Source: an uncultured bacterium
Lineage (GTDB): Bacteria; Zixibacteria; MSB-5A5; UBA10806
Length of the DNA stretch: 64,000 nt
Assembly (NCBI GenBank): GCA_965541585.1
Contig: CBEUCH010000016.1
Location: 1 to 64,000 of the forward strand
Direction of reading: 5' to 3'
Both the position numbers and the translations under genes were made by a program. The notes under the pieces were generated by a model, which ran no database searches, was not told the DNA's origin, and saw only the letters and a list, made by a program, of their open reading frames with translations. Positions 42,389-58,230 of this stretch are shown piece after piece; position 1 is the stretch's first letter, and each line of letters opens with the position of its first letter.

Positions 42389-43297
42389 ATGAAGAAGTTA
42401 TCACTGGCAACATTAATCGTGATTTTCGTCGTAGCTATAGCCTCCGCCCAATCAAACAAAATCGTCTTCGGGCCGCTGGTGGGGGATGATGCCGGAGTTC
42501 TAACCGTACACAAAAGCCAGGCCATCGGAGTTGAACTCTGGGTACGGACGAACCCGGATAATCCGGCTGACATTGTCGGAATGTCTCACGGCCTGATTTC
42601 CGAGGATTTTATCATTGCCGAGCGAAACGGCATGGATCCCGAGCCTGATTACGATTCACCCCCCTGGGAAAATGTCTTTGTGGACGGGCCGTATGTATAT
42701 GATCCGGAGGATAACTTTCCTATTCCGGTGGGTTGGACTTGCGAAATGCAGGGCGCTTTGTGTATTATTTTTAATCCGGTGCAGTGTGCTATTTTAGATA
42801 CGCAAGGAGAGTGGGATCTCTACGGCACCTGGCTGATGACCACCAACACCGAAATACCGACAGAGCAAACTTATTTCCCATTCCAGGAGGGCTGGTACCC
42901 CCATACCCAGGGCCGGGAAAGCACCATTTGGGCATTCGACATTGGTGGTGGTGTCACTCCGGAGCAGTCTTACTGCGGGTTGTATTTTGAATCTAACATC
43001 TGCTCCTATCTCTCAGGCGACTGCGACCATAACGGCTTTCCAATCGAACTCACTGATGTTTTAGCCATGATCGGCTTTTACAGGGGAACGATGGAACCAT
43101 ATTTATGTGAATGCAGCGAAGATCCGACAGTCTACAACTTCGCCGCCACCGCCGACCCCAACGGCAACTGCGCACCCAACGAACTCCTGGACGTGGTTAC
43201 TGAGATAGCCGCCTACCGGGGAACCATGACAGCCTCCGGCTGCCCCGACTGCCCCGGCTCTGAGGGGCTGGTAACAGGCGAGAACGAAGGTCAATAA
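42389..43297 (+). CDS. Array paralog 1: secreted variable domain plus Cys-rich dockerin
   Basis: Signal peptide, NKIVFGPL..DDAG domain, GDCDHNG...ADPNGNC duplicated Ca-loop/helix. Confidence 0.85.
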   Translation: MKKLSLATLIVIFVVAIASAQSNKIVFGPLVGDDAGVLTVHKSQAIGVELWVRTNPDNPADIVGMSHGLISEDFIIAERNGMDPEPDYDSPPWENVFVDGPYVYDPEDNFPIPVGWTCEMQGALCIIFNPVQCAILDTQGEWDLYGTWLMTTNTEIPTEQTYFPFQEGWYPHTQGRESTIWAFDIGGGVTPEQSYCGLYFESNICSYLSGDCDHNGFPIELTDVLAMIGFYRGTMEPYLCECSEDPTVYNFAATADPNGNCAPNELLDVVTEIAAYRGTMTASGCPDCPGSEGLVTGENEGQ

Positions 43298-43307
43298 GGG
43301 AGAAAAT

Positions 43308-44228
43308 ATGAAAACGCTGCTCTCAATATTATTGGCGATAATGTTCATGCAATCAGCGGCTCTCTCGCAGGACCTGAACAAGATCGTCTTCGGCCCGCTG
43401 GAGGGAGATGATGCCGGAGTTCTGACCGTGCATAACGGCCAGGCCATCGGAGTTGAACTCTGGGTGCGGACAGATCCGGGCAATCCTGCTCCTGTTGTTG
43501 GTGTAGCTCACGGACTCATGTCTGAAGATGTCATCATAGCCGAGCGAAATGGCTTGGATCCTGAGCCCCTGTACGATTGGTGTATGTATTTTGTCGACGG
43601 CCCATACGCTTATGATGACCCGTATGAATATGAATTTCCCATCCCTCCGGGCTGGACATGTGAAATGCAGTGGGCTGTCCCCTGCGATTGGCCGCCCTGT
43701 GGTGACGGCGAACCCGGCGGCGGTCCCATGGACACTCAGGGCGAATGGGACCTCTACGGTAGCTGGCTGATGATCACTAACATCGAAATACCGGCAGAGC
43801 AAACTTATTTCCCATTCCAGGAGGGCTGGTACCCCCATAACGGCGAGGGAACAAAATGGGAATTCGAGGGTGGTGGAGGCGTCGTGCCGGAGCAGTCCTA
43901 CTGCGGCCTGTATTTTGAATCTAATATCTGCTCCTATCTCCTCGGCGATTGCGACCATAACGGCTTTCCGATAGAACTCACCGATGTTTTAGCCATGATC
44001 GGCTTTTACAGGGGGGGAATAGAGCCAGATTATCTATGCGAATGCGGCGAAGATCCGACAGTTTACAGCTTCGCCGCCACAGCCGACCCCAACGGCAACT
44101 GCGCACCCAACGAGCTTAGCGACGTGGTTACCGAGATCGGCGCCTACCGGGGAACCATGACGGCCTCCGGCTGCCCCGACTGCCCCGGTACGGAGGGGAT
44201 AGTGATTCGAGAAAATGAAGGTCAATAA
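43308..44228 (+). CDS. Array paralog 2: variable domain plus dockerin
   Basis: Same architecture as paralog 1. Confidence 0.85.
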   Translation: MKTLLSILLAIMFMQSAALSQDLNKIVFGPLEGDDAGVLTVHNGQAIGVELWVRTDPGNPAPVVGVAHGLMSEDVIIAERNGLDPEPLYDWCMYFVDGPYAYDDPYEYEFPIPPGWTCEMQWAVPCDWPPCGDGEPGGGPMDTQGEWDLYGSWLMITNIEIPAEQTYFPFQEGWYPHNGEGTKWEFEGGGGVVPEQSYCGLYFESNICSYLLGDCDHNGFPIELTDVLAMIGFYRGGIEPDYLCECGEDPTVYSFAATADPNGNCAPNELSDVVTEIGAYRGTMTASGCPDCPGTEGIVIRENEGQ

Positions 44229-44238
44229 GGGCGGAAAT

Positions 44239-45123
44239 ATGAAAACGCTACTCTCAATAATATTGGCTATATTGTTCATGCAATCACCGGCCTCCGCCCA
44301 ATCGAACAAGATCGTCATCGGCCCACTGGAGGGGGATGACGCCGGTGTTTTGACAGTGCACAATGGCGAAGCCATAGAGGTTGAGATATGGGTGCGAACC
44401 GATCCGGATAATCCGGCGGTGGTTATAGGCGTGAGCCACGGATTATTGTCAGAGGATATCATCATAGCGGAGCGAAATGGCATGGATGTTGAGCCCCCGT
44501 ACGACGAATGGCTTCAATATTTTGTAGATGGGCCCTTTACAGATGCCGACGGGGGTGCTTACCCTTATCCTGCCGGCTTTATCGGCGAGATGCAGGGTGC
44601 AATCTGGTGTGGCTTTTTGCCGCCTTGCCCCGACCAACCCATAGACACTCAGGGCGAATGGGACCTTTACGGCACATGGCTGATGGATGTTAATATCGGA
44701 ATACCGACAGAGCAAACTTATTTCCCATTCCAGGAAGGATGGTACCCCCATAGCGGGTATGGCACCCTATGGGCATTCGACGGTGGTGGCATGGTCACTC
44801 CCGAGCAGTCTTACTGCGGCCTTTATTTTGAGCCATATCCTTGTTCATATATCCCCGGCGACTGCGACCATAACGGTTTTCCAATAGAACTCACCGATGT
44901 CCTGGCCATGATAGGTTTTTACAGGGGAACGATGAGACCAGATTTATGCGAATGCGGCGATGATCCCTTAATGCTCTATTTTGCTGCCACCGCCGACCCC
45001 AACGGCAACTGCGCGCCCAACGAGCTTCTGGACGTGGTTACCGAGATAGCCGCCTACCGGGGAACCATGACAGCCTCCGGCTGCCCAGATTGCCCCGGTA
45101 CGGAGGGTTTGTTGCGAAAATAA
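44239..45123 (+). CDS. Array paralog 3: variable domain plus dockerin
   Basis: Same architecture; start moved to ATG 44239 (MKTLLSI) by homology with the other paralogs. Confidence 0.85.
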   Translation: MKTLLSIILAILFMQSPASAQSNKIVIGPLEGDDAGVLTVHNGEAIEVEIWVRTDPDNPAVVIGVSHGLLSEDIIIAERNGMDVEPPYDEWLQYFVDGPFTDADGGAYPYPAGFIGEMQGAIWCGFLPPCPDQPIDTQGEWDLYGTWLMDVNIGIPTEQTYFPFQEGWYPHSGYGTLWAFDGGGMVTPEQSYCGLYFEPYPCSYIPGDCDHNGFPIELTDVLAMIGFYRGTMRPDLCECGDDPLMLYFAATADPNGNCAPNELLDVVTEIAAYRGTMTASGCPDCPGTEGLLRK

Positions 45124-45132
45124 GGCGGTAAT

Positions 45133-46038
45133 ATGAAGAATCTATTCAAAACATTATTGGTAACCTCTTTAATAACAGCGTCAGCTTCCGCCCAATCCAA
45201 TAAGATCGTCGTCGGCCCGCTGGTGGGGGATGATGCCGGAGTCCTGACCGTGCACAATGCTGAGGCTATAGAAGTTGAACTCTGGGTGCGGACCGACCCG
45301 GCTAATCCAACTTCCATTATCGGCGTGGCGCATGGTTTATCCTCAGATAATGTTATTATTGCTGAGCGAAATGGAGTTGTTATAGAACCTGAATACGACG
45401 AGCCCTATTGGTGCACAGTCTGGGTCGACGGGCCTTTTATCCATAATCCAGCTGACGATTTCCCCATTCCGGAAGGTTTGACATGCGAGATCTCGGTCGG
45501 ATTATATACATGGTGGCCCGACTGCATCGGCTGGCCGCTCAATACTCAGGGCGAATGGGACCTCTACGGCACCTGGCTGATGGTTGTTAATACCGGAATA
45601 CCAACAGAGCAAACTTATTTCCCATTGGAAGAGGGCTGGTATCCCCACAACGGAGAGGGCACAAACTGGGCATTCGACCGTGGTGGAGGCGTCACTCCGC
45701 AACAGTCTTACTGCGGCCTGTATTTTGAATCTAACATCTGCTCCTATATCCCCGGCGACTGCGACCATAACGGCTTTCCAATAGAACTCACCGATGTTCT
45801 GGCCATGATAGGCTTTTACAGAGGGGGAATAGAGCCAGATTATCTATGCGAATGCGGGGAAAACCCGACAGTATACAACTTCGCGGCCACAGCCGACCCC
45901 AACGGCAACTGCGCGCCCAACGAGCTTCTGGACGTGGTTACCGAGATAGCCGCCTACCGGGGGACGATGACCGCCTCCGGCTGCCCCGACTGCCCCGGTA
46001 CGGAGGGGATTGTGATTCGAGAAAATGAGGATCAATAA
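45133..46038 (+). CDS. Array paralog 4: variable domain plus dockerin
   Basis: Same architecture. Confidence 0.85.
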   Translation: MKNLFKTLLVTSLITASASAQSNKIVVGPLVGDDAGVLTVHNAEAIEVELWVRTDPANPTSIIGVAHGLSSDNVIIAERNGVVIEPEYDEPYWCTVWVDGPFIHNPADDFPIPEGLTCEISVGLYTWWPDCIGWPLNTQGEWDLYGTWLMVVNTGIPTEQTYFPLEEGWYPHNGEGTNWAFDRGGGVTPQQSYCGLYFESNICSYIPGDCDHNGFPIELTDVLAMIGFYRGGIEPDYLCECGENPTVYNFAATADPNGNCAPNELLDVVTEIAAYRGTMTASGCPDCPGTEGIVIRENEDQ

Positions 46039-46047
46039 GGGGGAAAT

Positions 46048-47502
46048 ATGAAGAGGCTCTTCTGGCTATTACTGATTATATCTTTTATTTCATCATCAGC
46101 TTTCGGACAGGGCCTGAATAAGATCGTCTTCGGCCCGCTGGAGGGAGATGAAGCCGGGGTTCTAACCGTGCATAACGGTGAAGATATCGAGATCGAAATG
46201 TGGGTTCGAACAGACCCTAATAATCCAGGGCCTGTTGATAACATATTTCATGCTCTACTCTCTGAAGATATTATTATCGCCGAACGAAATGGTATTGTTA
46301 TTGAACCTCCGTATGACAATGCCAACTGGGGGGGCTTTGTGGGTGTAGACGGTCCTTACGTTCATAATCCAAACGATAATTACCCTATTCCTGAGGGTTA
46401 TACATGTGAAATCCAGTATGCTCTTCATTGCGACCCTTTTCCCTGCGATACCGACGAAATGGACACACAGGGCGAGTGGGATCTTTACGGGACCTGGATG
46501 ATGGTTGTCAATATGGACATCCCCGTGGATCAGACATATTTTCCTTTCATGGAAGGCTGGTACCCCGGTACGGGAAACGGTACTGAATGGTCGTTCGACG
46601 GTGGTGGCGGCGTCACTCCGGAGCAGTCTTACTGCGGTCTTTATTTCCCGATGCCCCAAACCAATAAGATCGTCTTCGGCCCGCTGGTGGGAGATGAGGC
46701 TGGAGTCTTGACGGTGCATAACAACCAGGCCATCGGAGTTGAACTCTGGGTTCGTACCGATCCGGATAATCCGGCGGTGGTTACAGGCGTGCAACACGGG
46801 TTATTGTCAGAGGATATCATTATCTTAGAGCGAAACGGAATGGATATCGAGCCTCAATATGAATCTAATTACTGGCAAACATTTGTCGACGGCCCATACT
46901 CTTATGATGACCCGTATGAATATGAATTTCCCATCCCTCCGGGCTGGACCTGTGAAATGCAGTGGGCTCTCCGCTGCGATTTGCCGCCCTGCGACGGCGA
47001 ACCCATGGACACTCAGGGCGAATGGGACCTCTACGGTACCTGGCTGATGATCACCAACATCGAAATACCGACAGAGGAAACTTATTTCCCATTCCAGGAG
47101 GGATGGTATCCACATAGCGGGGAAGGCACCCACTGGTCATTCGAAGGTGGTGGAGGCGTATACCCTGAGGAAGATTACTGCGGTTTGTATTTCGAACAGT
47201 ATATCTGCGAATATATTCCCGGCGACTGCGACCATAACGGCTTTCCGATAGAACTCACCGATGTCCTGGCCATGATAGGTTTTTACAGGGGAACGATGAG
47301 ACCAGATTTATGCGAATGCGGCGATGATCCCTTAATGCTCTATTTTGCTGCCACCGCCGACCCCAACGGCAACTGCGCGCCCAACGAGCTTCTGGACGTG
47401 GTTACCGAGATAGCCGCCTACCGGGGAACCATGACAGCCTCCGGCTGCCCAGACTGCCCCGGCTCGGAGGGGCTCGTAATTCGAGAAAATAAAGGGCATT
47501 AG
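46048..47502 (+). CDS. Array paralog 5: two tandem variable domains plus dockerin
   Basis: NKIVFGPL occurs twice (YCGLYFPMPQTNKIVFGPL junction), followed by the dockerin. Confidence 0.85.
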   Translation: MKRLFWLLLIISFISSSAFGQGLNKIVFGPLEGDEAGVLTVHNGEDIEIEMWVRTDPNNPGPVDNIFHALLSEDIIIAERNGIVIEPPYDNANWGGFVGVDGPYVHNPNDNYPIPEGYTCEIQYALHCDPFPCDTDEMDTQGEWDLYGTWMMVVNMDIPVDQTYFPFMEGWYPGTGNGTEWSFDGGGGVTPEQSYCGLYFPMPQTNKIVFGPLVGDEAGVLTVHNNQAIGVELWVRTDPDNPAVVTGVQHGLLSEDIIILERNGMDIEPQYESNYWQTFVDGPYSYDDPYEYEFPIPPGWTCEMQWALRCDLPPCDGEPMDTQGEWDLYGTWLMITNIEIPTEETYFPFQEGWYPHSGEGTHWSFEGGGGVYPEEDYCGLYFEQYICEYIPGDCDHNGFPIELTDVLAMIGFYRGTMRPDLCECGDDPLMLYFAATADPNGNCAPNELLDVVTEIAAYRGTMTASGCPDCPGSEGLVIRENKGH

Positions 47503-47511
47503 GGAGGATAT

Positions 47512-48468
47512 ATGAAAACGTTACTCTCAATAATATTGGCGATATCGATCATGCCGTCAGCGGCCCTTTCGCAGGACCTGAACAAAATCGTCTTCGGGCC
47601 TCTTGTGGGCGACAGTGCCGGAATACTGACTGTCCGCAACGGGGAGGAAATTGCCATTGAAATGTGGATACACGCTGATCCCGAAAATCCATCATGTATT
47701 ATAGGTCTATCTCATGGACTCATAACCGACGACGCTATCATTGCTGAAAGAAACGGCGTTGTCATCGATCCGTATTATGATGAACCCTACTGGGAGTCAG
47801 TCTGGGTTGATGGCCCATTTGACCACAACCCGGAAGATCCCTTTCCGATCCCGGAAGGACATACCGGTGAAAACCAGGTTGCCCTGGGATCCCTATTTGG
47901 TGGTTGTGATAGCATTCTTCATATACTCCCGGATACGGGATGGGTTTATTACGGGTCGTTTTTAATGGTATGTAACGATAACGTACCGCTGGGCGAAATA
48001 TATTATCCATTTTCCATAGGCTGGTATCCGCATAGCGGTCAGGGAACCAGCTGGTCGTTTGATAACCCTCCGGGCGGCAGTGTTGAACCGGAGCAGGATT
48101 ACTGCGGACTTTATTTCGTGCCGGAATGCGATTATGTTCCCGGCGATTGCGACCACGACGGGACTCCGTGGAGGCTTACCGATGTAGTCTCCATGATCGC
48201 CTTCTACAGAGGCTTTGCGGAACCTCCCTATACGTGCTACTGCCCGCCTCATGATGACGATTACCCTCCCGGCGCCGATCCCGACGGCAGTTGTGTTCCG
48301 TATGAGCTCTCCGACGTGGTCATCATGATCACCATGTTCCGGGGTCCTGGATGGCCGCCTTCCGGCTGCCTCGATTGCCGAACTTTCGGCAGGGTGGATT
48401 CGAGAAATGGCGATAATGAGAACCTCGTGCCAACCCTGAAATCAAAGGCTAAGATCGAGAAAGAATGA
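47512..48468 (+). CDS. Array paralog 6: variable domain plus divergent dockerin
   Basis: GDCDHDGTPWRLTDV...ADPDGSCVPYELSDV. Confidence 0.85.
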   Translation: MKTLLSIILAISIMPSAALSQDLNKIVFGPLVGDSAGILTVRNGEEIAIEMWIHADPENPSCIIGLSHGLITDDAIIAERNGVVIDPYYDEPYWESVWVDGPFDHNPEDPFPIPEGHTGENQVALGSLFGGCDSILHILPDTGWVYYGSFLMVCNDNVPLGEIYYPFSIGWYPHSGQGTSWSFDNPPGGSVEPEQDYCGLYFVPECDYVPGDCDHDGTPWRLTDVVSMIAFYRGFAEPPYTCYCPPHDDDYPPGADPDGSCVPYELSDVVIMITMFRGPGWPPSGCLDCRTFGRVDSRNGDNENLVPTLKSKAKIEKE

Positions 48469-48478: not shown

Positions 48479-50713
48479 ATGAAAAAGCTACCGCTTGCAT
48501 TGTTGATTATTCTCTCAGGCACAGCTCTCGCTTCGGCGCAGGATTTAAACAAAATCGTCTTCGGGCCGCTGGAGGGAGATGAGGCGGGAGTTTTGACCGT
48601 GCATAATGGCGAAGATATTGAGATTGAGATGTGGGTCCGGACCGATATCAATAATCCTGAACCCGTTTTTGCCGTAAGCCACGCTTTAATGTCAGAAGAT
48701 GAGATCATAGCTGAGCGTAACGGCGCCCAGCTTGATCCGGATTATGACATGCCGAACTGGGAGCAAGTCTTCGTTGATGGGCCATTTAATCATAATCCCA
48801 ATGATCCCTTCCCAATACTTGAAGGCCACACCTGCGAGATGCTGGGTGCTCTTTATATTGTTTTCCAAGACCCCTACCCGGGTAGCCATCCCCTTGATAC
48901 TCAGGGAGAATGGGATTATTATGGTGCTTTCCTGATGTCCTGTAATGCTGATATCCCGATCGATAATACTTATTATCCGTTTTCAGCGGGTTGGTATCCT
49001 CATAACGGATTAGGTTTCCGATGGACATTCGAGGTAGGCGAATACGTCATACCGGAGCAGGATTATTGCGGGCTTTACGTAACCACAAATGCAGACCCGG
49101 AGTTCACGATCTGTCCTCAAGATACGCAGCATGTTGCTCCCCGGCAGCCGATCTGCCTCGATGTCGCCGGCGTGGACGCAGATACGCTCGATGATCTACA
49201 TATCTCCCTGATCTCCGGACCCGGTACATATTCCGAGGAAATTGGCGGGCCCGGAGGCTTTACCTCGGGTATCTGGTGCTGGGATAATCCTGCGCCAGGC
49301 GCCCACACCGTCCTGCTCGAGCTCAACGACAATGCCGGCGGAGTCGTCTATTGCGAATTTATCCTCGATGTTGAGGACATCGCCCTGGAGATCGAGTCTG
49401 TCGCGGGGTTCCCTGGTGCTACGGTCGTGGTTCCCATTCGCTTGCACACCTGGCTTTTGAGGACCGGCGGTGTGGAGCTCCTCATAACCTGGGATCCGGC
49501 GGATCTGAAACTTACGGAAGTCGTACCTAAGTCACGCATGGACTTCGGCAATGAATACTTCAACCACGATGTAGACAATCCCTGTGATCCGCCCTGCGAC
49601 CCGGGTGGCGCCGTCAGGATTTCCTGGATATCGGATATTGACGACGGCATTCCCCATGCCCCGGCCGGCGCCGGCAGCGACCCGATCTTAGAGTTGATTT
49701 TCGATGTCTACCCCGGCCTGCCATGGGATATGAATATTCCCATCTCCTTCTTCACCCAGCACGATACGGATAACATCGTTGCCGATTCATCCGGTAATGT
49801 CTGGTTCACTCCCGAATTAATCGACGGATGTATCGGAGTGCAGGATCCCTTTACATTCAGGAAGGGCGACCCAAATATGAATGGCCATTTCTTTGAAATA
49901 GGCGATGTATTGCTGGTTATTCGTCGTTTGATTGAGGGCTATGTCGTCTGGTCTGAGAACGGCACTAATGACGACGACCTGCAAGAATACGCCGCTGACT
50001 TGAATAGAAACGGATTTGTGGATTTTTCAGATCTAATGACGTTCATCAACATTTTCAACGGTATTGTCGATCCCCCGTATAAGTTCCGGCCAGGCTCCGG
50101 GGTGGCACGTATCAGCATGACCGAAAATATCGGAGACAATGTGGTTGTATCTATCGATGCGGATGTTGATATTGGCGGGGTCCTTGTCAGAATCTCTCAT
50201 CCGGGCATTGAGCTTGATGCTCCTTATGTCGAAAACAGCATGGAGATTCGCCACCACGATTCCGATGGCCTCATGAGCGCTGTCGTATATTCGCTGGAGG
50301 CAAATACCATACCGGCCGGCAATTCGCATCTTTTCACCATACCTGTTCTCCCTAACGAGGATGGTTGCCTGCGCTTCACCGAGGTTTCCTCCGCCGACTC
50401 TTATGGTCGTCTGATGGAGACTGTGGCTTCTCTGGAGACTCCTCTGCCAACTACCTTTGCCGTCGAGCAAAACTACCCCAACCCATTCAATGCCTCCACA
50501 ACCATCCGATACAGCCTGCCGGAGGCCAGCGAGGTCACAATCGAAATCTTCAACATCCTGGGGCGGAAGGTTGAGACGCTGGTTCAGGAAAAACAGGCTG
50601 CCGGCTATAATCAGGTGGTCTGGGATGCTGAGAATCAGCCGTCGGGAGTCTATTTCTATTGGATAAAAGCCGGAGAATATAAGGAATCGAGGAGCTGTTT
50701 GCTTCTGAAATAG
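48479..50713 (+). CDS. Array paralog 7: scaffold-like protein (variable domain, Ig-like, cohesin-like, dockerin, second sandwich, CTD)
   Basis: Cohesin-like LEIESVAGFPGATVVVPIRL...GGVELLITWDPADL. Dockerin GDPNMNG...DV...AADLNRNGFVDFSDL. QNYPNPFN CTD. Confidence 0.8.
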   Translation: MKKLPLALLIILSGTALASAQDLNKIVFGPLEGDEAGVLTVHNGEDIEIEMWVRTDINNPEPVFAVSHALMSEDEIIAERNGAQLDPDYDMPNWEQVFVDGPFNHNPNDPFPILEGHTCEMLGALYIVFQDPYPGSHPLDTQGEWDYYGAFLMSCNADIPIDNTYYPFSAGWYPHNGLGFRWTFEVGEYVIPEQDYCGLYVTTNADPEFTICPQDTQHVAPRQPICLDVAGVDADTLDDLHISLISGPGTYSEEIGGPGGFTSGIWCWDNPAPGAHTVLLELNDNAGGVVYCEFILDVEDIALEIESVAGFPGATVVVPIRLHTWLLRTGGVELLITWDPADLKLTEVVPKSRMDFGNEYFNHDVDNPCDPPCDPGGAVRISWISDIDDGIPHAPAGAGSDPILELIFDVYPGLPWDMNIPISFFTQHDTDNIVADSSGNVWFTPELIDGCIGVQDPFTFRKGDPNMNGHFFEIGDVLLVIRRLIEGYVVWSENGTNDDDLQEYAADLNRNGFVDFSDLMTFINIFNGIVDPPYKFRPGSGVARISMTENIGDNVVVSIDADVDIGGVLVRISHPGIELDAPYVENSMEIRHHDSDGLMSAVVYSLEANTIPAGNSHLFTIPVLPNEDGCLRFTEVSSADSYGRLMETVASLETPLPTTFAVEQNYPNPFNASTTIRYSLPEASEVTIEIFNILGRKVETLVQEKQAAGYNQVVWDAENQPSGVYFYWIKAGEYKESRSCLLLK

Positions 50714-50731: not shown

Positions 50732-51622
50732 ATGAAGAAGTTAGCAGCGGCGACATTAATCGTGATTTTCAGCTTATCTATAGCCTCCGCCCAATCCAAC
50801 AAGATCGTCTTCGGCCCGCTGGAGGGAGATGATGCCGGGGTTTTGACGGTGCATAATGGTGAGGCTATTGAGATTGAGATGTGGGTACGGACAGATCCGG
50901 ATAATCCTGCCCCTATTATCGGCGTATCGCATTGCCTGATGTCTGCGGATACTATTATCGCCAGCCGCAACGGTGCCACATTTGATTCCGACTATGGCTA
51001 TCCGTGTTGGGATACCTTCGTCAGCCCCCCATTCGGACACCCGTATGATCCGAACATTCCCGAAGGACATACGATACAAGTTGCAGCCGCTATCTATACG
51101 ATATTCGATCCTCCCTGCCACCCAATGGATACGAACGGCGAATGGGACTATTACGGGGCTTTTTTGATGACATGCAATACCGGCCTGCCTGTCGACAGCA
51201 CATATTACCCGTTTTTAGCTGGCTGGTTTCCGCACAGCGGGCAGGGAACCAGTTGGTCTTTTGAAGCTCCGCCGGGCGGAAGCGTGGAGCCAGAACAGGA
51301 TTACTGCGGGCTCTTTTTTCAACCCGAAACCCGTATCGGCCAGAATGAAGGATTGCCTGAAGAGTTTTCCCTTTTCCAAAACCACCCTAATCCGTTCAAC
51401 ACCAAGACCACAATCCGATATAGCCTGCCGGAAGAGAGCGACGTCACCATCGAAATCTACAATATCCTGGGACGAAAGATTGAGACGCTGGTATCGGGAA
51501 TACAGCCAGCCGGATGGCATTCGATGGTATGGGATGCTGAAAATCGGCCGTCAGGAGTCTATTTCTATTGGATAAAAGCCGGAGAATATAAGGAATCGAG
51601 GAGCTGTTTGCTTCTGAAATAG
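50732..51622 (+). CDS. Array paralog 8: variable domain plus CTD
   Basis: NKIVFGPL domain, then QNHPNPFN...SCLLLK. Confidence 0.85.
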   Translation: MKKLAAATLIVIFSLSIASAQSNKIVFGPLEGDDAGVLTVHNGEAIEIEMWVRTDPDNPAPIIGVSHCLMSADTIIASRNGATFDSDYGYPCWDTFVSPPFGHPYDPNIPEGHTIQVAAAIYTIFDPPCHPMDTNGEWDYYGAFLMTCNTGLPVDSTYYPFLAGWFPHSGQGTSWSFEAPPGGSVEPEQDYCGLFFQPETRIGQNEGLPEEFSLFQNHPNPFNTKTTIRYSLPEESDVTIEIYNILGRKIETLVSGIQPAGWHSMVWDAENRPSGVYFYWIKAGEYKESRSCLLLK

Positions 51623-51640
51623 AAGGTCAAGGGGGAAAAT

Positions 51641-52549
51641 ATGAAAAGATTACTGATGCCATTATTAATCGTGATTTTCGGCTTAGCTACAGCCTCCGCC
51701 CAATCCAACAAGATCGTCTTCGGGCCGCTGGAGGGGGATGAAGCCGGGGTTCTAACCGTTCACAATAGTGAGGCTATCGGAATTGAGATGTGGGTGCGAA
51801 CAGACCCGGATAATCCTACGCCCATTATCGCCACAGCGCATGGTCTGATGTCTGAAAATGTGATCATAGTGGAACGAAATCGAATGGATCCTGAGCCGGA
51901 ATATAACTCACTGCCTTGGGCACAGTTCTTTATAGACGGGCCTTATGTATATGATCCCCAATATGACTTTCCTATACCTGAAGGCTGGACATGCGAAATG
52001 CAAGGTGCATTATGTTGTGACCTCCCAGGTGACCCTGGGCCGCGTCTTGACACCCAGGGCGAATGGGATCTTTACGGTACCTGGCTGATGGTCACTAATA
52101 CCGAAATAGCGACAGAGCAAACTTACTTCCCATTCGTAGAAGGCTGGTATCCGCATAGTGGCTTTGGTACTTCCTGGGTGTTCGAGTGGGGTGATGATTG
52201 GGTTGAACCTGACAAGTCTTACTGCGGGTTGTATTTCGAATCTAATATCTGCGTCTATCTCCCCGGCGACTGCGACCATAACGGCTTTCCGATAGAACTC
52301 ACTGATGTCCTGGCCATGATCGGTTTTTATAGAGGGGGAATAGAGCCAGATTATCTATGCGAATGCAGCGAAGATCCGACAGTTTACAACTTCGCCGCCA
52401 CAGCCGACCCCAACGGCAACTGCGCCCCCAACGAGCTTCTGGACGTGGTTACCGAGATAGCCGCTTACCGTGGAACCATGACAGCCTCCGGCTGCCCCGA
52501 CTGCCCCGGCTCCGAAGGAATAGTGAATCGAGAAAATGAAGGGCGATAG
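51641..52549 (+). CDS. Array paralog 9: variable domain plus dockerin
   Basis: Same architecture as paralogs 1-4. Confidence 0.85.
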   Translation: MKRLLMPLLIVIFGLATASAQSNKIVFGPLEGDEAGVLTVHNSEAIGIEMWVRTDPDNPTPIIATAHGLMSENVIIVERNRMDPEPEYNSLPWAQFFIDGPYVYDPQYDFPIPEGWTCEMQGALCCDLPGDPGPRLDTQGEWDLYGTWLMVTNTEIATEQTYFPFVEGWYPHSGFGTSWVFEWGDDWVEPDKSYCGLYFESNICVYLPGDCDHNGFPIELTDVLAMIGFYRGGIEPDYLCECSEDPTVYNFAATADPNGNCAPNELLDVVTEIAAYRGTMTASGCPDCPGSEGIVNRENEGR

Positions 52550-52558
52550 GAGGCCATT

Positions 52559-53452
52559 ATGAGGACCCTGGGATTTATATTGTTTGCATTCATATCTTTA
52601 GGGATGTCTGAGACCTCCGCGCAATCCAACAAAATCGTCTTCGGCCCGCTGGAGGGGGATGAGGCTGGAATCCTGACAGTGCATAACGGAGAGGCCATCG
52701 GAGTTGAACTCTGGGTACGGACAGATCCGGATAATCCCACCGGCATCTGTGGCATGGCCCATGGCCTATCATCAGATGATCTTATAATAGGGAGTCGAAA
52801 CGGAATCGATATTGAACCTGAGTATGACATGCCGAATTGGGAAGCCACCTGGGTTGATGGACCTTTTACGCATAATCCCGATGATCCTTTCCCAATTCCA
52901 CAAGGATTTACGTGCGAAGTTCAAATTGGTTATAGTCTGTGGTGTTCACCGTTTATGGATACGAACGGCGAGTGGGATCTCTATGGCACCTGGCTGATGG
53001 TTACCAATACTGGAGTACCGATAGAGCAGCTCTATTACCCATTTGCAATGGGCTGGTATCCTCATAGCGGACAGGGAACCAGTTGGTCTTTTGAAGCTCC
53101 GCCGGGCGGCTCGGTCGTTCCCGAGCAGGATTACTGCGGGCTCTATTTTGAAACCGAAACCCGTATAGACGAGAATAAAAGATTGCCCCAGGAGTTTTCA
53201 TTGGCTCAAAACTATCCCAATCCCTTCAATGCCAAGACCACAATCCGATACAGCCTGCCGGAAAAGAGCGATGTCACCATAGAAATCTTCGATATCCTGG
53301 GGCGGAAGGTTGAGACGCTGGTTCAAGAAAGACTGGCTGCCGGCTATCATCAGGTGGTCTGGGACGCTGAGAATCAACCATCAGGAAATTATATGTACTG
53401 GATAAAAGCCGGAAAATATAAGGAATCGAGGAGCTGTTTGCTTCTGAAATAG
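52559..53452 (+). CDS. Array paralog 10: variable domain plus CTD
   Basis: NKIVFGPL domain plus QNYPNPFN CTD. Confidence 0.85.
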   Translation: MRTLGFILFAFISLGMSETSAQSNKIVFGPLEGDEAGILTVHNGEAIGVELWVRTDPDNPTGICGMAHGLSSDDLIIGSRNGIDIEPEYDMPNWEATWVDGPFTHNPDDPFPIPQGFTCEVQIGYSLWCSPFMDTNGEWDLYGTWLMVTNTGVPIEQLYYPFAMGWYPHSGQGTSWSFEAPPGGSVVPEQDYCGLYFETETRIDENKRLPQEFSLAQNYPNPFNAKTTIRYSLPEKSDVTIEIFDILGRKVETLVQERLAAGYHQVVWDAENQPSGNYMYWIKAGKYKESRSCLLLK

Positions 53453-53470
53453 AAGCTCAAGGGGGAGAAT

Positions 53471-54364
53471 ATGAAGAAGCTATTACTGGCGACATTAATC
53501 GTGATTTTCAGCTTATCTATTGCCTCCGCCCAATCCAACAAGATCGTCTTCGGGCCGCTGGAGGGGGATGATGCCGGGGTTTTGACGGTGCACAATGCGG
53601 AGAGTATCGAAGTTGAACTCTGGGTGCGGACCGATCCGGATAATCCTGACTGGATCATAGCTGTTTCCCACGGTTTGCTTTCTGAAGATGCCATTATCGC
53701 AGAGCGGAACGGCATGGATCCGGAGCCCGAATACAACATGCCTAACTGGGAAAGTTTCTTTGTCGACGGGCCTTTTGTACATGATCCAGACTATGCTTAT
53801 CCCATTCCGATAGGGTGGACATGCGAGATGCAGGTCGCACTATGCGTCTGGAATCCGGGTTGTAGTTTGGATACCCAGGGCGAATGGGATCTTTATGGCA
53901 CCTGGCTGATGGTTACGAATACCGAAATACCGGTTGAACAGACCTATTACCCTTTTGAAATGGGCTGGTACCCTCACAGTGGTCAGGGAACATCATGGGC
54001 TTTTGAAGTACCACCGGGCGGCATCATTGAGCCGGAGCAGTCTTACTGCGGGCTCTTTTTTGAACCCGAAACAAGTATCGACGAGAATGAAAGCCTGCCT
54101 GAAGAGTTTTTCCTTTTCCAAAACTACCCCAACCCGTTCAACACCAAGACCACAATCCAATACAGCCTGCCGGAAGAGAGCAATGTCACAATCGAAATAT
54201 ACAATATCCTTGGCCGCAGGATCGAGACGCTAATATCCGGGATTCAGCCACCCGGTTCGCATTCGGTGGTATGGGATGCTGAAAATCAACCGTCAGGAGT
54301 CTATTTCTATTGGATAAAAGCCGGAAAATATAAGGAATCGAGGAGCTGTCTGCTTCTGAAATAG
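53471..54364 (+). CDS. Array paralog 11: variable domain plus CTD
   Basis: NKIVFGPL domain plus QNYPNPFN CTD. Confidence 0.85.
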   Translation: MKKLLLATLIVIFSLSIASAQSNKIVFGPLEGDDAGVLTVHNAESIEVELWVRTDPDNPDWIIAVSHGLLSEDAIIAERNGMDPEPEYNMPNWESFFVDGPFVHDPDYAYPIPIGWTCEMQVALCVWNPGCSLDTQGEWDLYGTWLMVTNTEIPVEQTYYPFEMGWYPHSGQGTSWAFEVPPGGIIEPEQSYCGLFFEPETSIDENESLPEEFFLFQNYPNPFNTKTTIQYSLPEESNVTIEIYNILGRRIETLISGIQPPGSHSVVWDAENQPSGVYFYWIKAGKYKESRSCLLLK

Positions 54365-54382
54365 AAGGTCAATGGGGAAAAT

Positions 54383-55276
54383 ATGAAGAAGTTAGCAGCG
54401 GCGACATTAATCGTGATTTTCAGCTTATCTATAGCCTCCGCCCAATCCAACAAGATCGTCTTCGGCCCGCTGGAGGGAGATGATGCCGGGGTTTTGACGG
54501 TGCATAATGGTGAGGCTATTGAGATTGAGATGTGGGTACGGACAGATCCGGATAATCCTGCCCCTATTATTGGCATATCGCATTGTCTGATGTCTGCGGA
54601 TACTATTATCGCCAGCCGTAACGGTGCCACATTTGATCCAGACTACAGCTATCCGTGTTGGAATACCTTCGTCAGCCCCCCATTCGGACACCCGGATTAT
54701 CCGGACCTTCCCGAAGGACATACGATACAAGCTGCAGGCGCTATGCATACGGTATTCGATCCTCCCTGCGATTCAATAGATACGAACGGCGAATGGGATT
54801 ATTACGGGGCTTTTTTGATGACATGCAACACCGGCCTGCCAACAGATGAAACCTATTATCCGTTTTCTATGGGTTGGTATCCTCACAGCGGCGAGGGAAC
54901 AAAATGGGCATTCGCGGGAGGTGGCGGCATCGAGCCGGAACAGTCTTACTGTGGGCTGTATTTTGAGCCATATCCTTGTTTGTACATTCCCGGCGACTGC
55001 GACCATAACAGCTTTCCAATAGAACTCACTGACGTCCTGGCCATGATAGGCTTTTACAGGGGGAATATAGAGCCAGATTATCTATGCGGCTGCGGAGAAG
55101 ACCCCATAATACACGATTTCGCTGCCACCGCCGATCCCAACGGCAACTGCGCCCCCAACGAGCTTCTGGACGTGGTTACCGAGATAGCCGCCTACCGTGG
55201 AACCATGACAGCCTCCGGTTGCCCCGACTGCCCCGGCTCCGAGGGTCTGGTAAAGCGAGAAGATGAAGGTCAATAA
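54383..55276 (+). CDS. Array paralog 12: variable domain plus dockerin
   Basis: N-domain nearly identical to paralog 8, but with a dockerin C-terminus. Confidence 0.85.
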   Translation: MKKLAAATLIVIFSLSIASAQSNKIVFGPLEGDDAGVLTVHNGEAIEIEMWVRTDPDNPAPIIGISHCLMSADTIIASRNGATFDPDYSYPCWNTFVSPPFGHPDYPDLPEGHTIQAAGAMHTVFDPPCDSIDTNGEWDYYGAFLMTCNTGLPTDETYYPFSMGWYPHSGEGTKWAFAGGGGIEPEQSYCGLYFEPYPCLYIPGDCDHNSFPIELTDVLAMIGFYRGNIEPDYLCGCGEDPIIHDFAATADPNGNCAPNELLDVVTEIAAYRGTMTASGCPDCPGSEGLVKREDEGQ

Positions 55277-55285
55277 GGGGCGAAT

Positions 55286-56185
55286 ATGAAAACGCTGCTC
55301 TCAATATTCTTGGTGATATCGATCATGCCGTCAGCGGCCGTTTCGCAGGACCTGAACAAGATCGTCATCGGCCCGCTGGTGGGAGATGATGCTGGCATTT
55401 TGACTGTGCATAACGGCGAAGATATTGAGATTGAGGTATGGGTGCGGACCGACCCGGGTAACCCGGTTTATATAGTCTTTGTTGCTCATGGTCTGTTGTC
55501 TGAAAACGCAATCATAGCGGAGCGAAATGGAATGGACCCTGAGCCTGTATATGACATGCCACCTTGGGAGTCATTCTGGGTCGATGGACCTTTTGTCCAT
55601 AATCCGGAAGACAACTTTCCAATCCCCTCAGGGTGGACCTGCGAAATGCAGGCTGCATGGCTCGGCTGGACCGATCCACCACCACCTCTCGATACACAGG
55701 GAGAATGGGACCTCTACGGCACCTGGCTTATGGTTACGAATACCGAGATACCGATAAACCAGACCTATTACCCACTTGCAATGGGCTGGTATCCGCACAG
55801 CGAGCAGGGGACCTTCTGGGGTTTTCCAGTGCCTCCCGGTGGCTCGGTGGAACCCGAGCAGTCTTACTGCGGGCTCTATTTTGAACCCGAAACAAATATC
55901 GACCAGAATGAAAGATTGCCGCAGGAGTTTTCTCTGGCTCAAAACTACCCCAATCCCTTCAATGCCAAGACCACAATCAAATATGGCCTGCCGGAAGCGA
56001 GGGAGGTTACAATCGAAATCTACAATACCCTGGGACGGAGGGTTGAGACGCTGGTTCAAGAAAAACAGGCTGCCGGCTATCATCAGGTGGTCTGGGATGC
56101 TGAGAATCAGCCGTCAGGAGTCTATTTCTATTGGATAAAAGCCGGAGAATATAAGGAATCGAGGAGCTGTTTGCTTCTGAAATAG
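55286..56185 (+). CDS. Array paralog 13: variable domain plus CTD
   Basis: NKIVIGPL domain plus QNYPNPFN CTD. Confidence 0.85.
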   Translation: MKTLLSIFLVISIMPSAAVSQDLNKIVIGPLVGDDAGILTVHNGEDIEIEVWVRTDPGNPVYIVFVAHGLLSENAIIAERNGMDPEPVYDMPPWESFWVDGPFVHNPEDNFPIPSGWTCEMQAAWLGWTDPPPPLDTQGEWDLYGTWLMVTNTEIPINQTYYPLAMGWYPHSEQGTFWGFPVPPGGSVEPEQSYCGLYFEPETNIDQNERLPQEFSLAQNYPNPFNAKTTIKYGLPEAREVTIEIYNTLGRRVETLVQEKQAAGYHQVVWDAENQPSGVYFYWIKAGEYKESRSCLLLK

Positions 56186-56203
56186 AAGGTCAAGGGGGAA
56201 AAT

Positions 56204-57103
56204 ATGAAGAAGTTATCAGCGGCGACATTAATAGTGCTTTTCGGCTTAGCTATAGCCTCCGCCCAATCCAACAAAATCGTCTTCGGCCCGCTGGAGGGAG
56301 ATGAGGCTGGGGTCTTGACGGTGCATAATGGTGAGGCTATTGAGATTGAGGTATGGGTCAGGACGGATCCATTGAATCCCGCTCCCGTCGTGGGATTTGC
56401 CACCGGATTATTGTCAAATGATAGCTTCATAGCCGAAAGAAACTGTGCCATTTTTAATCCCGAATACCATTGGGAAAGTATGGGCTGCGACGGCCCGTTT
56501 CGACACGATCCGGATGATCCTTTCCCTATCCCGGAAGGTCATACATCGGAATTCATATGGGCCATCTGTCCGCTTTTTCCCCCTCCCTACTGTGATACTC
56601 TTGATACCGGTGGCGAATGGGATTATTTAGCCTCCTTCCTGATGGTCTGCAATACCGGCGTGCCAACAGATGAAACCTATTATCCGTTTTCTATTGGCTG
56701 GTATCCTCACAGCGGCGAGGGAACAAAATGGGCATTCGCGGGTGGTGGTGGCATCACCCCGGAGCAAGACTATTGCGGATTGTATTTTGATGAAATTATC
56801 GTTTGCGATTACATCCCCGGAGATTGCGATCATAACGGCTTTCCAATAGAACTCACCGATGTTCTGGCCATGATAGGATTTTACAGGGGGAATATAGAGC
56901 CAGATTATCTATGCGAATGCGGCGAAGATCCTACAGTCTACAACTTCGCCGCCACCGCCGACCCCAACGGGAACTGCGCCCCCAACGAGCTTCTGGACGT
57001 GGTTACGGAGATAGCCGCCTACCGGGGAACCATGACAGCCTCCGGTTGCCCCGACTGTCCCGGCTCGGAGGGGCTGGTGATTCGAGAAAATGAAGATCAA
57101 TAA
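56204..57103 (+). CDS. Array paralog 14: variable domain plus dockerin
   Basis: Same architecture as the other dockerin paralogs. Confidence 0.85.
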   Translation: MKKLSAATLIVLFGLAIASAQSNKIVFGPLEGDEAGVLTVHNGEAIEIEVWVRTDPLNPAPVVGFATGLLSNDSFIAERNCAIFNPEYHWESMGCDGPFRHDPDDPFPIPEGHTSEFIWAICPLFPPPYCDTLDTGGEWDYLASFLMVCNTGVPTDETYYPFSIGWYPHSGEGTKWAFAGGGGITPEQDYCGLYFDEIIVCDYIPGDCDHNGFPIELTDVLAMIGFYRGNIEPDYLCECGEDPTVYNFAATADPNGNCAPNELLDVVTEIAAYRGTMTASGCPDCPGSEGLVIRENEDQ

Positions 57104-57112
57104 GGGAGAAAT

Positions 57113-58006
57113 ATGAAAACGCTGCTATCAATATTATTGGCGATATCGATCATGCCGTCAGTGACAGTTTCGCAGAACCTGAATAAGATCGTTTTCGGGC
57201 CGCTGGAGGGGGATGATGCCGGGGTTTTGACCGTGCACAACGGCCAGGCTATTGAGATTGAGATGTGGATTAGAACGGATCCGAATAATCCTGCGCCTAT
57301 TATCGGCGTATCGCATTGCCTGATGTCTGCGGATACCATTATCGCCAGCCGCAGTGGTGCCACATTTGATCCCGACTATAGCTATCCCTGTTGGGATACC
57401 TTCGTTAGCCCCCCATACGGACACCCGGATGATCCGAACATTCCCGAAGGATATACGATACAAGCTGCAGGCGCTATCTATACGGTATTCGATCCTCCCT
57501 GCCACCCAATGGATACGAACGGCGAATGGGACTATTACGGGGCTTTTTTGACGACATGTAATACCGGCGTGCCAATAGATGAAACCTATTATCCATTTTC
57601 CAGTGGCTGGTATCCCCACAGCGGGCAGGGAACCAGTTGGTCTTTTGAAGCTCCTCCGGGCGGAAGCGTTGATCCAGAACAGGATTACTGCGGGCTCTAT
57701 TTTGAGCCGGAGATCACTATCGATCCTATTCCTGAGATTCCCTCTGAGTTTTCATTGGCTCAAAACTACCCCAATCCGTTCAACACCAGGACCACAATCC
57801 AATATAGCCTGCCGGAGGAGAGCGGGGTCACAATCGAAATCTACAATATCCTGGGGCGGAAGGTTGAGACGCTGATTCGAGAAAAACAGACAGCCGGCTA
57901 TCATCAGGTGGTCTGGGATGCTGAAAATCAACCGTCAGGAAACTATTTGTACAGAATTAAGGTTGCGGAGTATGTGGAAACGAGGAGTTGCCTGCTTTTG
58001 AAATAA
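57113..58006 (+). CDS. Array paralog 15: variable domain plus CTD
   Basis: N-domain nearly identical to paralogs 8 and 12; CTD C-terminus. Confidence 0.85.
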   Translation: MKTLLSILLAISIMPSVTVSQNLNKIVFGPLEGDDAGVLTVHNGQAIEIEMWIRTDPNNPAPIIGVSHCLMSADTIIASRSGATFDPDYSYPCWDTFVSPPYGHPDDPNIPEGYTIQAAGAIYTVFDPPCHPMDTNGEWDYYGAFLTTCNTGVPIDETYYPFSSGWYPHSGQGTSWSFEAPPGGSVDPEQDYCGLYFEPEITIDPIPEIPSEFSLAQNYPNPFNTRTTIQYSLPEESGVTIEIYNILGRKVETLIREKQTAGYHQVVWDAENQPSGNYLYRIKVAEYVETRSCLLLK

Positions 58007-58145
58007 AGCCGGGACTATGCAAACGGCTTTCCAGAATATGCAGGCAAATCGCAATGAACGGATTTTTCGAAAAGAGGACTTGTAAATCTGGTGTCTTAAT
58101 CGGTGATTCTCAGGATCTGGCGTCAGCCTTTTCCTGGTATGTGAA

Positions 58146-58158: not shown

Positions 58159-58230
58159 ATGGATAAGGAGCCACCCATTTGCCTGCTCAAAAAAAAGGCA
58201 AATAAGCTCCACAATTTTTGCAAAAAAGTC

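Follow-up and report, generated by a model that had tools for sequence, protein, structure and literature searches.

We find that the 744-residue open reading frame (ORF) referred to here as paralog 7, the 7th among 16 paralogues in an array spanning 42389–59295 of the window (the whole 64,000-nucleotide stretch of DNA analysed), is best explained as a mini-scaffoldin, anchored at the cell surface and belonging to a system that displays non-cellulase cargo by cohesin-dockerin docking, a reading to which we give a probability of about 0.55. Cohesin-dockerin assembly is the textbook cellulosome device of Gram-positive anaerobes. Paralog 7 carries a T9SS (type IX secretion) tail together with a dockerin and as many as three cohesins, the latter two kinds of module being predicted from their folds. 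It is likely to share with several other proteins the role of a docking post on the cell surface, at which some fifty dockerin-tagged proteins would attach.

Paralog 7, for which the AlphaFold2 model has a mean pLDDT of 81, consists in order of a signal peptide, a variable N-domain (probably a divergent cohesin), an Ig-like spacer, a cohesin, a dockerin, a second sandwich resembling a trimmed cohesin and a T9SS type A CTD (Table 1). A preliminary description of this DNA had proposed an Ig-like segment, a cohesin, a separate dockerin, a sandwich and a CTD, and the fold matches and CTD models bear this layout out; the Ig-like segment (residues 205–299), for example, found its fold match at Z 10.7 and rmsd 1.9 Å. 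When the whole 744-residue model was searched with Foldseek, long Ig-tandem proteins dominated and cohesins appeared at ranks 29–50 only. The cohesin-dockerin core is present in 28 further proteins, mostly full-length.

Table 1. Coordinates of paralog 7, its modules and associated features in the window.
Feature	Position	Strand	Basis or remark
SprA/Sov T9SS translocon	24023..29923	-	TIGR04189, 724 bits (cut-off 200)
Six upstream array genes	42389..48468	+	N-domain (two in 46048) and Cys-rich dockerin, no CTD
Example array dockerin	43001..43270	+	symmetric EL.DV..(M/E)I..YRG helices, six cysteines
Paralog 7 ORF	48479..50713	+	744 aa; domain searches, AlphaFold2 model, 28 homologues
Sec-type signal peptide, aa 1-20	48479..48538	+	sequence, read by eye
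Variable N-domain, aa 24-202	48548..49084	+	fold search on array member 42389, profile comparison, mosaic ancestry
Ig-like spacer, aa 203-300	49085..49378	+	fold match
Central cohesin, aa 301-457	49379..49849	+	fold, HMM, HHalign, family conservation
Internal dockerin, aa 460-535	49856..50083	+	PF00404 scores, fold match, family conservation
Second sandwich, aa 540-652	50096..50434	+	2w1n fold match, HHalign against cohesin profiles
T9SS type A CTD	50456..50710	+	PF18962, TIGR04183, DNA identity
Nine downstream array genes	50732..59295	+	N+CTD and N+dockerin types

A fold search with residues 297–457 of the model returned type I cohesins, the best at Z 18.6 and rmsd 2.0 Å over 142 residues, with cohesins filling ranks 1–20 of 48,161 chains and the nine-stranded cohesin β-sandwich recovered for residues 301–457. 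An HMM built from 7 Pfam-confirmed cohesin modules of the same genome matched residues 300–455 (E 9e-10), and HHalign related the domain to Pfam-confirmed cohesin modules at 98.6%, supporting homology to recognised cohesins. The preliminary description had placed a cohesin at about 49379–49850, made its proposal depend on a cohesin fold there and suggested a scan with PF00963; the fold is predicted and both profile comparisons uphold the call, but PF00963 does not match, and we class the module as a divergent cohesin and not as a PF00963 member.

The internal dockerin has two EF-hand-like loops, is asymmetric and differs from the dockerin of the array. Its model matches 4fl4_A and 2ccl_B (Z 10.5–10.6, rmsd 1.4–1.8 Å); at the level of fold, the suggestion that paralog 7 carries its own dockerin stands, but against the PF00404 cut-off of 22.9 bits the module passed in one scan (24.0) and fell short in another (19.5). 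The array dockerin, for which no Pfam or NCBIfam match was found, was modelled with a fold that aligns to 2ccl_B over 61/62 residues (Z 8.6, rmsd 1.4 Å). In the models, both types show the duplicated EF-hand-like loop and helix of the dockerin fold, and both sequences carry DxNxNG/DxDxNG...D motifs, from which calcium binding is predicted; the Cys-rich array type is also disulfide-capable.

Further along the protein, residues 539–743 match the cohesin and FnIII pair of 2w1n (Z 12.5 over the two-domain range, with a whole-pair rmsd of 22 Å), suggesting that the second sandwich is probably a trimmed cohesin, weakly tied to cohesins by HHalign (3–54% against cohesin profiles). The CTD was matched by PF18962 (E 1.2e-10, 42 bits, cut-off 27) and, in the TIGR04183 scan put forward with the original CTD assignment, at 38.9 bits (cut-off 23); at the DNA level it shares 92% identity with the CTD of the LVIVD gene (42125–42370). 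With a signal peptide (by eye) and this C-terminal CTD, paralog 7 has the layout of T9SS type A cargo. The SprA gene first noted in the window is confirmed far above the model's cut-off (Table 1), and SprA, PorV and PorU were all found in the genome (687 bits against 420 in one search, 8 loci over cut-off in another); GldM (TIGR03517) had no match in the genome, but the controls gave none either, so that this result is uninformative.

All genes of the array, with paralog 7 among them, are co-directional. Downstream of paralog 7, the genes at 50732, 52559, 53471, 55286, 57113 and 58396 are of the N+CTD type and those at 51641, 54383 and 56204 of the N+dockerin type. Across the array, a dockerin-like module without a CTD ends nine members, as initially reported and now supported by domain scans and the dockerin fold of the module, and six have a CTD only. 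Reads of four sequencing runs matched the array as short pieces of related strains, none spanning it, and no RNA run was present among 16 listed sequencing runs, with all shares at 0.15 or less.

A census of the 7,483 ORFs of the genome placed dockerins on 56, of which 49 are CTD-less; the other 7, with both dockerin and CTD, all also have cohesins. A CTD is present on 10 of the 14 cohesin ORFs and on 179 ORFs in the genome as a whole. The secretome is split into CTD tails and dockerin tails, an exclusivity that is partly positional since both are C-terminal, and N-domain, LVIVD and β-helix bodies each occur with either tail. The array-type Cys-rich dockerin ends 45 ORFs genome-wide, and domain scans of these proteins (9 in the array and 36 others, a set that leaves out three other CTD-less dockerin ORFs) found a glycoside hydrolase family on none of them, with one Cip1-like match, below cut-off, inside FG-GAP repeats. 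The dockerin-bearing cellulases or glycoside hydrolases of a cellulosome were not found in this set, in agreement with the non-CAZyme cargo first suggested. Dockerin-tailed, CTD-less proteins include a C25 peptidase and a 7,579-residue repeat protein, which would be too large for a periplasm and so is more likely to reach the surface, and the cargo is likely made up of peptidases, propellers, β-helices and adhesins rather than cellulases.

Localisation and anchoring of paralog 7 are extrapolated from Bacteroidota, where type A cargo offers a precedent: Sec and then SprA/PorV would export the protein, and PorU would anchor it. CTD-less dockerin proteins, including the nine array members, would then dock in a Ca-dependent manner on CTD-anchored surface cohesins, with paralog 7 only one candidate post among ten.

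Paralog 7 itself duplicates a scaffold gene that lies in a conserved cohesin cluster on contig C13. The order of this cluster (Coh-Doc, paralog-7 type, two to three Coh-CTD, Coh-Ig-Coh-Doc-Coh-CTD) recurs in G000 (C13), G004, G005, G007, G008, G013, G014 and L042, and in G002 it matches up to the contig end. A 709-residue cluster neighbour is built in the same way, except that Pfam recognises a cohesin at the position of the N-domain; it would offer three cohesins where paralog 7 has one clear and two probable ones. The suggestion that paralog 7 is the dedicated scaffold of the array does not agree with these data: nine other cohesin ORFs bear a CTD as well, paralog 7 duplicates a cluster gene, and the G002 array (L122), with its five N+dockerin genes, lacks paralog 7.

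The preliminary description raised the possibility that the CTD-less dockerin paralogues dock onto CTD-bearing cohesin scaffolds, for piggy-back export or surface assembly. In the form considered here, the array dockerins would bind the central cohesin of paralog 7 in the periplasm and ride through SprA together with it. The co-directional array with paralog 7 in its midst would suit such a ride-along, as would the presence of paralog 7 in the G001 array (L119), the canonical fold of the central cohesin and the occurrence of its face motif in several cluster cohesins, as for a common socket. However, the G002 array manages without paralog 7, and the same dockerin type is spread over the genome. 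Moreover, T9SS substrates are described as using their own CTD to engage PorV and SprA (PMC10994853), the consulted part of that article describes no hetero-complex export by T9SS, and we found no description of a piggy-back mode for this system. Two further secretin clusters with PilB/GspE-type ATPases could export CTD-less proteins, which makes piggy-back export one possibility of two and unnecessary for explaining the data. We regard this pairing with shared passage through SprA as the foremost alternative, albeit an unlikely one.

The conservation data also bear on the proposed pairing itself. Across the 28 homologues, conservation is highest in the internal dockerin (mean identity 76%) and in the putative binding face of the central cohesin (E333, E359, R380, D386, N432, D436), and both are conserved across genera whose cargo-type dockerin differs, which points to a partner other than the cargo dockerin. 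These indirect signs suggest that the partner of the central cohesin is more likely a dockerin of the conserved internal type, carried by a neighbouring scaffold, than the array dockerin. Complex prediction of residues 299–457 with the array dockerin and two Ca gave ipSAE values of 0.06 and 0.01 (mark 0.32), which count neither for nor against the pairing; among 78 modules, no family co-varied cleanly between cohesin face and genus-specific cargo dockerin.

The N-domain had been guessed to be cohesin-like, and here the evidence is divided. A fold search with the model of array member 42389 (pLDDT mostly 60–77) returned cohesins as all nine best matches (Z 8.7–9.6, rmsd 4.0–4.9 Å, a middling match), but neither the Pfam cohesin model nor a clean profile test establishes the assignment: an HHalign value of 98% against the cohesin profile was inflated by sequences common to both profiles, and fell to 46% without the shared sequences in the cohesin profile and to 2% without bridging sequences in the N profile. 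Alignments of N-domains from the window only scored below 3% against the central cohesin or Pfam-confirmed cohesins, and an Atlas lead was weak (PF00963 on 13% of one cluster, score 0.89). We consider the N-domain, on its modelled fold, to be probably a divergent cohesin.

It is also the least conserved part of the 28 homologues (36%), and it differs even between those with 94–97% identical cores. The variation is concentrated on the face through which known cohesins bind dockerin (entropy 1.92 versus 1.15 overall, a baseline that includes buried positions; permutation p 0.0001). Face and back positions were first chosen after viewing the entropy table, and a later repeat took its register from the profile alignment. 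In 7 independent close pairs, pN/pS of the face was 0.62, a value that does not show positive selection and, being below 1, is compatible with relaxation.

Sequence comparison indicates that the N-domain and CTD of paralog 7 differ in ancestry from its core. Their dS values are 1.9 and 1.3, against 0.12–0.32 for the conserved core; DNA identity is 90–100% in 20 of 22 segments of 60 nt across 49079–50398 and 38–78% in the leader and N-domain. In the tree, the N-domain of G001 falls beside window gene 52559 (support 1.0), that of paralog 7 beside C2:116002 (0.99). Both modules appear to have been exchanged with paralogues around the conserved core, and this exchange, together with the N-domain variation on the dockerin-binding face, is what is new here. 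The N-domain would be an outward-facing variable tip recombined between scaffold and array, such that scaffold and small adaptors would display one repertoire of variable cohesin-like faces via either anchor. A bolder version treats the cohesin fold as a diversified, antibody-like repertoire, in which about 26 closely related N-domains with a hypervariable face, shuffled among scaffold, dockerin adaptors and CTD anchors, capture foreign dockerin-tagged enzymes or other ligands or serve as phage or predator decoys, and CTD-less members cross SprA as pre-assembled cohesin-dockerin complexes; we hold this to be speculative and slightly less probable than the ride-along.

The same conservation pattern, a conserved internal dockerin and cohesin face beside an N-domain that varies over near-identical cores, could also mean that proteins of the paralog-7 type are mainly structural. 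Their internal dockerins would dock on the central cohesins of adjacent proteins to form a T9SS-anchored, cargo-independent surface layer with variable N tips. The short link of about 7 residues between cohesin and dockerin would argue against same-chain binding. Such a layer does not account for the 49 CTD-less dockerin proteins or for the CTD proteins with a single cohesin, however, and overlaps the mini-scaffoldin reading, differing only in denying a display role; we consider it more doubtful again.

A still more remote reading is that the folds were kept and the pairing lost, with the Cys-rich dockerin acting by itself as a Ca-binding tag for sorting or anchoring, and paralog 7 being a by-product of recombination in the array that the cell could do without. 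This dockerin is always terminal, often with a basic PSLK tail after it, and NCBIfam lists a 'GC-type dockerin domain-anchored protein', whose model weakly matches the internal dockerin (17.4 bits, under cut-off). Paralog 7 also lacks the C307/C325 pair, lost from its sequence, and at several positions of the face and the dockerin it deviates from the consensus of its family; it may be a relaxed duplicate. Its core is nevertheless under purifying selection relative to the G001 orthologue (dN/dS 0.16–0.41), and the cohesin cluster co-occurs with the dockerin expansion in the relatives searched. Least credible is the head-to-tail polymerisation first suggested, here taken as a chain in which the dockerin of one array protein binds the N-domain of the next, starting from an N+CTD protein. 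In its favour, the N-domain probably belongs to the cohesins, N+CTD members could anchor the chain, and N-N-dockerin and N-N-N-dockerin forms exist, but near-invariant dockerins (90% identity among 8) fit poorly with a matching face that is the most variable part of the N-domain.

The anchored mini-scaffoldin that we favour has counterparts in several known systems. Acetivibrio and Ruminococcus have single-cohesin anchors, cohesin+dockerin adaptors and a scaffoldin gene cluster that can be likened to the scaffolds here, with SLH or sortase anchors in place of the T9SS CTD. Type I pairs and scaffoldins of these genera (5nrk, 4uyp, 6kgc, 3ul4, 5lxv) share the cohesin and dockerin folds, whereas the present system differs in its 13–20% sequence identity, lack of cellulases, disulfide-capable Cys-rich dockerin and cohesin cassette exchange. 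Non-cellulosomal cohesins (C. perfringens GH33/GH84, 2vo8 and 2w1n; Archaeoglobus fulgidus, 2xdh) likewise show the cohesin fold outside cellulose degradation, and the arrangement of a cohesin ahead of an FnIII-like module recalls the second sandwich and CTD; the C. perfringens modules sit on catalytic enzymes, however, whereas the scaffold here has no catalytic domain. As in Bacteroidota type A cargo, in the consulted part of PMC10994853, a signal peptide and type A CTD occur together with SprA, the PorV family and PorU.

Closest in concept is the cellulosome-like complex predicted in silico for Ca. Stygibacter (Cloacimonadota; Williams et al. 2021, PMC8542988), where a CTD-tailed cohesin scaffold with dockerin proteins is already in print. 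In the portions of that article consulted, the diderm MAG likewise has a CTD-tailed cohesin scaffoldin and proteins that combine a signal peptide with a dockerin at the C-terminus, a C25 peptidase among them, in silico in both cases. It has one 3,755-residue scaffoldin with tandem cohesins, CBM2/3 and GH18/GH57 cargo, whereas here we observe many small scaffolds, no CBM/GH family found, an internal dockerin and a variable cohesin-like tip exchangeable with a 16-gene array. In the open literature, we found no paper on a Zixibacteria dockerin or Zixiibacteriota cohesin, and PMC8542988 was the one relevant paper to bring cohesins and dockerins together with type IX secretion.

Our reading would extend cohesin-dockerin assembly to a diderm lineage, coupled to type IX secretion and non-carbohydrate cargo. 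Standard Pfam scans detect neither the array dockerin nor the central cohesin nor the N-domain, suggesting that such systems are probably under-annotated, and the small, expressible modules make the docking idea testable. If CTD-less cargo does pass through SprA, the definition of a T9SS substrate would change; and should the variable tip prove to be a genuine repertoire for binding, it would constitute a library of naturally diversified cohesins, from which orthogonal pairs for designer complexes could be drawn.

Paralog 7 (48479-50713) lies seventh in an array (42389-59295) of 16 co-directional paralogues that have a domain of ~180 aa, here the N-domain, in common. Nine of them, as previously counted, end in a Cys-rich, dockerin-like module and lack a CTD, and six carry a T9SS CTD. 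Paralog 7 has a 450-aa insert upstream of its CTD, which was confirmed by both Pfam and NCBIfam scans. Its central cohesin had no match in these scans; however, an HMM trained on seven other cohesin modules of the same genome (G000), all confirmed by Pfam, matched residues 300-455 (E 9e-10). Fold searches with an AlphaFold2 model (28-sequence input, pLDDT 81, pTM 0.39) matched residues 205-299 to Ig domains, residues 297-457 to type I cohesins (Z 18.6, rmsd 2.0 Å) and residues 460-535 to dockerins (Z 10.5-10.6), the dockerin also scoring near the Pfam/NCBIfam cut-off (19.5 bits in one scan, 24.0 in another). A cohesin fold is thus predicted where the preliminary description had placed it, and the coordinates given there proved correct.

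Of 41 genomes searched, 35 had matches to the central cohesin, with all 13 of the family and all 10 of the sister family among them, and the N-domain (24/41) and array-type Cys dockerin (22/41) were found exclusively inside the order. A second paralog-7 copy in G000 (C13:44676) is embedded in a cohesin cluster comprising a Coh-Doc protein, the paralog-7 type, single-cohesin CTD proteins and a 709-aa protein, followed by a 7,579-aa repeat protein with a terminal dockerin and a protein of the order Coh-Doc-sandwich-CTD. At least G004, G005, G007, G008, G013, G014 and locus L042 have the first four elements in the same arrangement, and G002 keeps this order as far as its contig end. The best full-length match to bear a name, from L042, is labelled Candidatus Zixiibacteriota, on which the lineage assignment is based. 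Since this conserved cluster holds a paralog-7 gene, the copy in the window is a second copy of a conserved gene. Paralog 7 lies inside the array in G000 and G001; in G002, the same genes flank an array made up of five N+dockerin and two N+CTD genes, from which paralog 7 is absent.

Several related genes differ in architecture. In a second genus, G007 (L133) and G010 (L134) have separate arrays in which short N+dockerin and N+CTD genes occur and the dockerin is of another type, that of G010 likewise adjoining the oligopeptidase F-like gene. The 553-aa protein at C13:29852-31510 (L037; N-Ig-cohesin-dockerin) ends immediately after the dockerin, beyond which its 729-aa G002 orthologue (L123) has a second sandwich and a CTD; either L037 is a broken gene, or truncation has converted a scaffold with a CTD to one with a dockerin tail. 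The second paralog-7-type gene of G002 (L121:2145-4325, contig C93) encodes Ig, cohesin, dockerin, sandwich and CTD, with no N-domain match in its frame and an N-terminus of 16% identity, reflecting either a different tip or a frameshift. The 7,579-aa protein (C13:51457-74193) has a signal peptide and Ig/cadherin-like repeats, one motif being matched 69 times, and no CTD. Proteins at C14:50057-51172 (L021) and C1:228561-229577 have an N-terminal dockerin-like segment ahead of a cohesin-like domain; the former terminates with a Cys dockerin and the latter with a CTD, and both are further adaptor candidates. C2:125384-126064 and protein P0078 combine an N-type cohesin-like domain with a hydrophobic, Arg-rich C-terminal tail, with IPTLSEWG visible in P0078; we take this tail to resemble IPTL-CTERM, which would give the N-domain a third kind of anchor.

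Among 7,483 G000 ORFs of 80 aa or more, 179 carry a CTD and 45 the Cys-rich dockerin, none of the latter with a CTD. A wider census gave 56 dockerin ORFs, 49 without a CTD and seven with one, all seven also containing cohesins; ten of 14 cohesin ORFs carry a CTD. Recognisable cargo domains include one C25 and two M28 peptidases, LVIVD, FG-GAP, SBBP and Vps10 propellers, beta-helices, a cupredoxin and choice-of-anchor J domains. About 20 dockerin proteins, along with window 48400-48468, have a short basic tail with P(S/T)LK after the dockerin, possibly a second sorting or cleavage signal; other Cys-dockerin proteins terminate at CPDCPG. Three proteins of 107-116 aa (C6:206771-208273, C3:21135-21482 and C6:39705-40025) are barely more than leader and dockerin, and could be caps or competitors for cohesins.

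We consider it somewhat more probable than the reverse (roughly 0.55) that paralog 7 is a T9SS-anchored mini-scaffoldin which has a recombining, variable tip and belongs to a cohesin-dockerin system for surface display, and at the system level the scaffold interpretation offered earlier is upheld. T9SS would export and anchor paralog 7, dockerin proteins would dock onto cohesins in a calcium-dependent manner, and the variable N tip would point outward. Several face and dockerin positions of paralog 7 are off consensus and one cysteine pair is lost, which counts against this reading, as does the fact that the cohesin assignments of the N-domain and the second sandwich are no more than probable. 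By analogy, paralog 7 resembles the anchoring and adaptor scaffoldins of cellulosomes; however, the system is not a cellulosome, because domain scans of the 45 Cys-dockerin proteins, a set leaving out three other CTD-less dockerin ORFs, found no glycoside hydrolase families. A CTD-anchored scaffoldin with dockerin-tailed peptidases has been proposed for Ca. Stygibacter in an article that also cites the planctosome of Planctomycetes (Williams et al. 2021, PMC8542988), and literature outside subscription journals yielded nothing pairing Zixibacteria/Zixiibacteriota with dockerin or cohesin.

SprA, PorU and PorV-family genes were detected in G000; a search for GldM gave no match, either there or in the controls. 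Piggy-back export of docked proteins had been suggested; the passages on T9SS export in Lauber et al. (2024, PMC10994853) describe CTD-first export via SprA with PorV and do not address hetero-complexes. G000 also has a PilQ cluster and two further secretin clusters with PilB/GspE-type ATPases that score below the cut-offs of both T2SS and pilus models, the C20 cluster having no PilT among its listed ORFs; a second export route for CTD-less proteins is therefore possible.

Pilus/T2SS-like clusters of G000 scoring below T2SS as well as pilus model cut-offs
Cluster	Location	Components
L142	C20:32661-43014	ATPase, platform protein, pilins, secretin
L144	C1:270199-286012	ATPase, platform protein, pilins, secretin

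Paralog 7 may contain further cohesins. When array member 42389 was modelled (pLDDT 72), the nine best fold matches of its N-domain were all cohesins (Z 8.7-9.6, rmsd 4.0-4.9 Å), and the Cys-rich tail matched a dockerin (rmsd 1.4 Å across 61/62 residues). The suggestion that the N-domain is cohesin-like is thus supported by fold; in HHalign its support hinges on bridging homologues, falling from 98% with sequences common to both profiles to 46% over 141 columns once the cohesin profile was cleaned, and to 2% after bridges were also taken out of the N profile. Residues 539-743 of paralog 7 matched a cohesin and FnIII pair, and the 709-aa protein, whose first cohesin, Ig and dockerin have Pfam support, parallels paralog 7 module for module (cohesin-Ig-cohesin-dockerin-cohesin-CTD). 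These matches and this parallel suggest one clear cohesin and two probable ones, the N-domain and second sandwich, around a dockerin.

Neither the putative face of the central cohesin (E333, E359, R380, D386, N432, D436) nor the internal dockerin varies across genera in which the cargo dockerin helix changes from EL.DV..MI..YRG in G000 to NGLDV..LV.YFKG in G004, G005, G008 and G013, which indirectly favours scaffold-to-scaffold pairing of this cohesin over pairing with the array dockerin. The receptor of the array dockerin may, on similarly indirect grounds, be one among the ten CTD-bearing cohesin proteins; several cluster cohesins have a face motif identical to that of the central cohesin, and none co-varied cleanly with cargo dockerin type. 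Head-to-tail polymerisation of array N+dockerin proteins, previously raised should the N-domain be cohesin-like, fits poorly, as it would set invariant array dockerins (90% identical in eight of nine, leaving out the divergent 47512) against a hypervariable N-domain face.

Compared with its G001 orthologue, paralog 7 shows 90-100% DNA identity in 20 of 22 60-nt windows across 49079-50398, against 38-78% in the leader and N-domain and 67-80% in the CTD; dS is 0.12-0.32 in the core (dN/dS 0.16-0.41), 1.88 in the N-domain and 1.32 in the CTD. The G001 N-domain clusters with window gene 52559 (support 1.0), that of paralog 7 with the tandem N-domains of C2:116002 (support 0.99), and the final 246 nt of paralog 7 share 92% identity with the CTD of an LVIVD gene (42125-42370). 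Given this split, grouping and CTD match, exchange with paralogues is the most likely origin of both ends, on either side of a conserved core. Three beta-helix-type CTD genes whose CTD ends are nearly identical lie, along with the LVIVD-CTD gene, in window regions 33-3452 and 40265-42370.

Across 28 homologues, mean identity is lowest in the N-domain (36%; central cohesin 60%, dockerin 76%), which diverges even where cores are 94-97% identical. Its variation concentrates on positions aligned with what we take, from type I cohesin structures, to be the dockerin-binding face: in 26 G000 N-domains, entropy at these positions is 1.92 against 1.15 overall, or 2.07 against 0.87 in a hand-picked comparison with exposed back-sheet positions, and in seven close pairs pN is 0.23 against 0.10 at equal pS, with face pN/pS below 1. 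This exchangeable, face-variable, cohesin-like tip is the part of the system most deserving of specialist attention.
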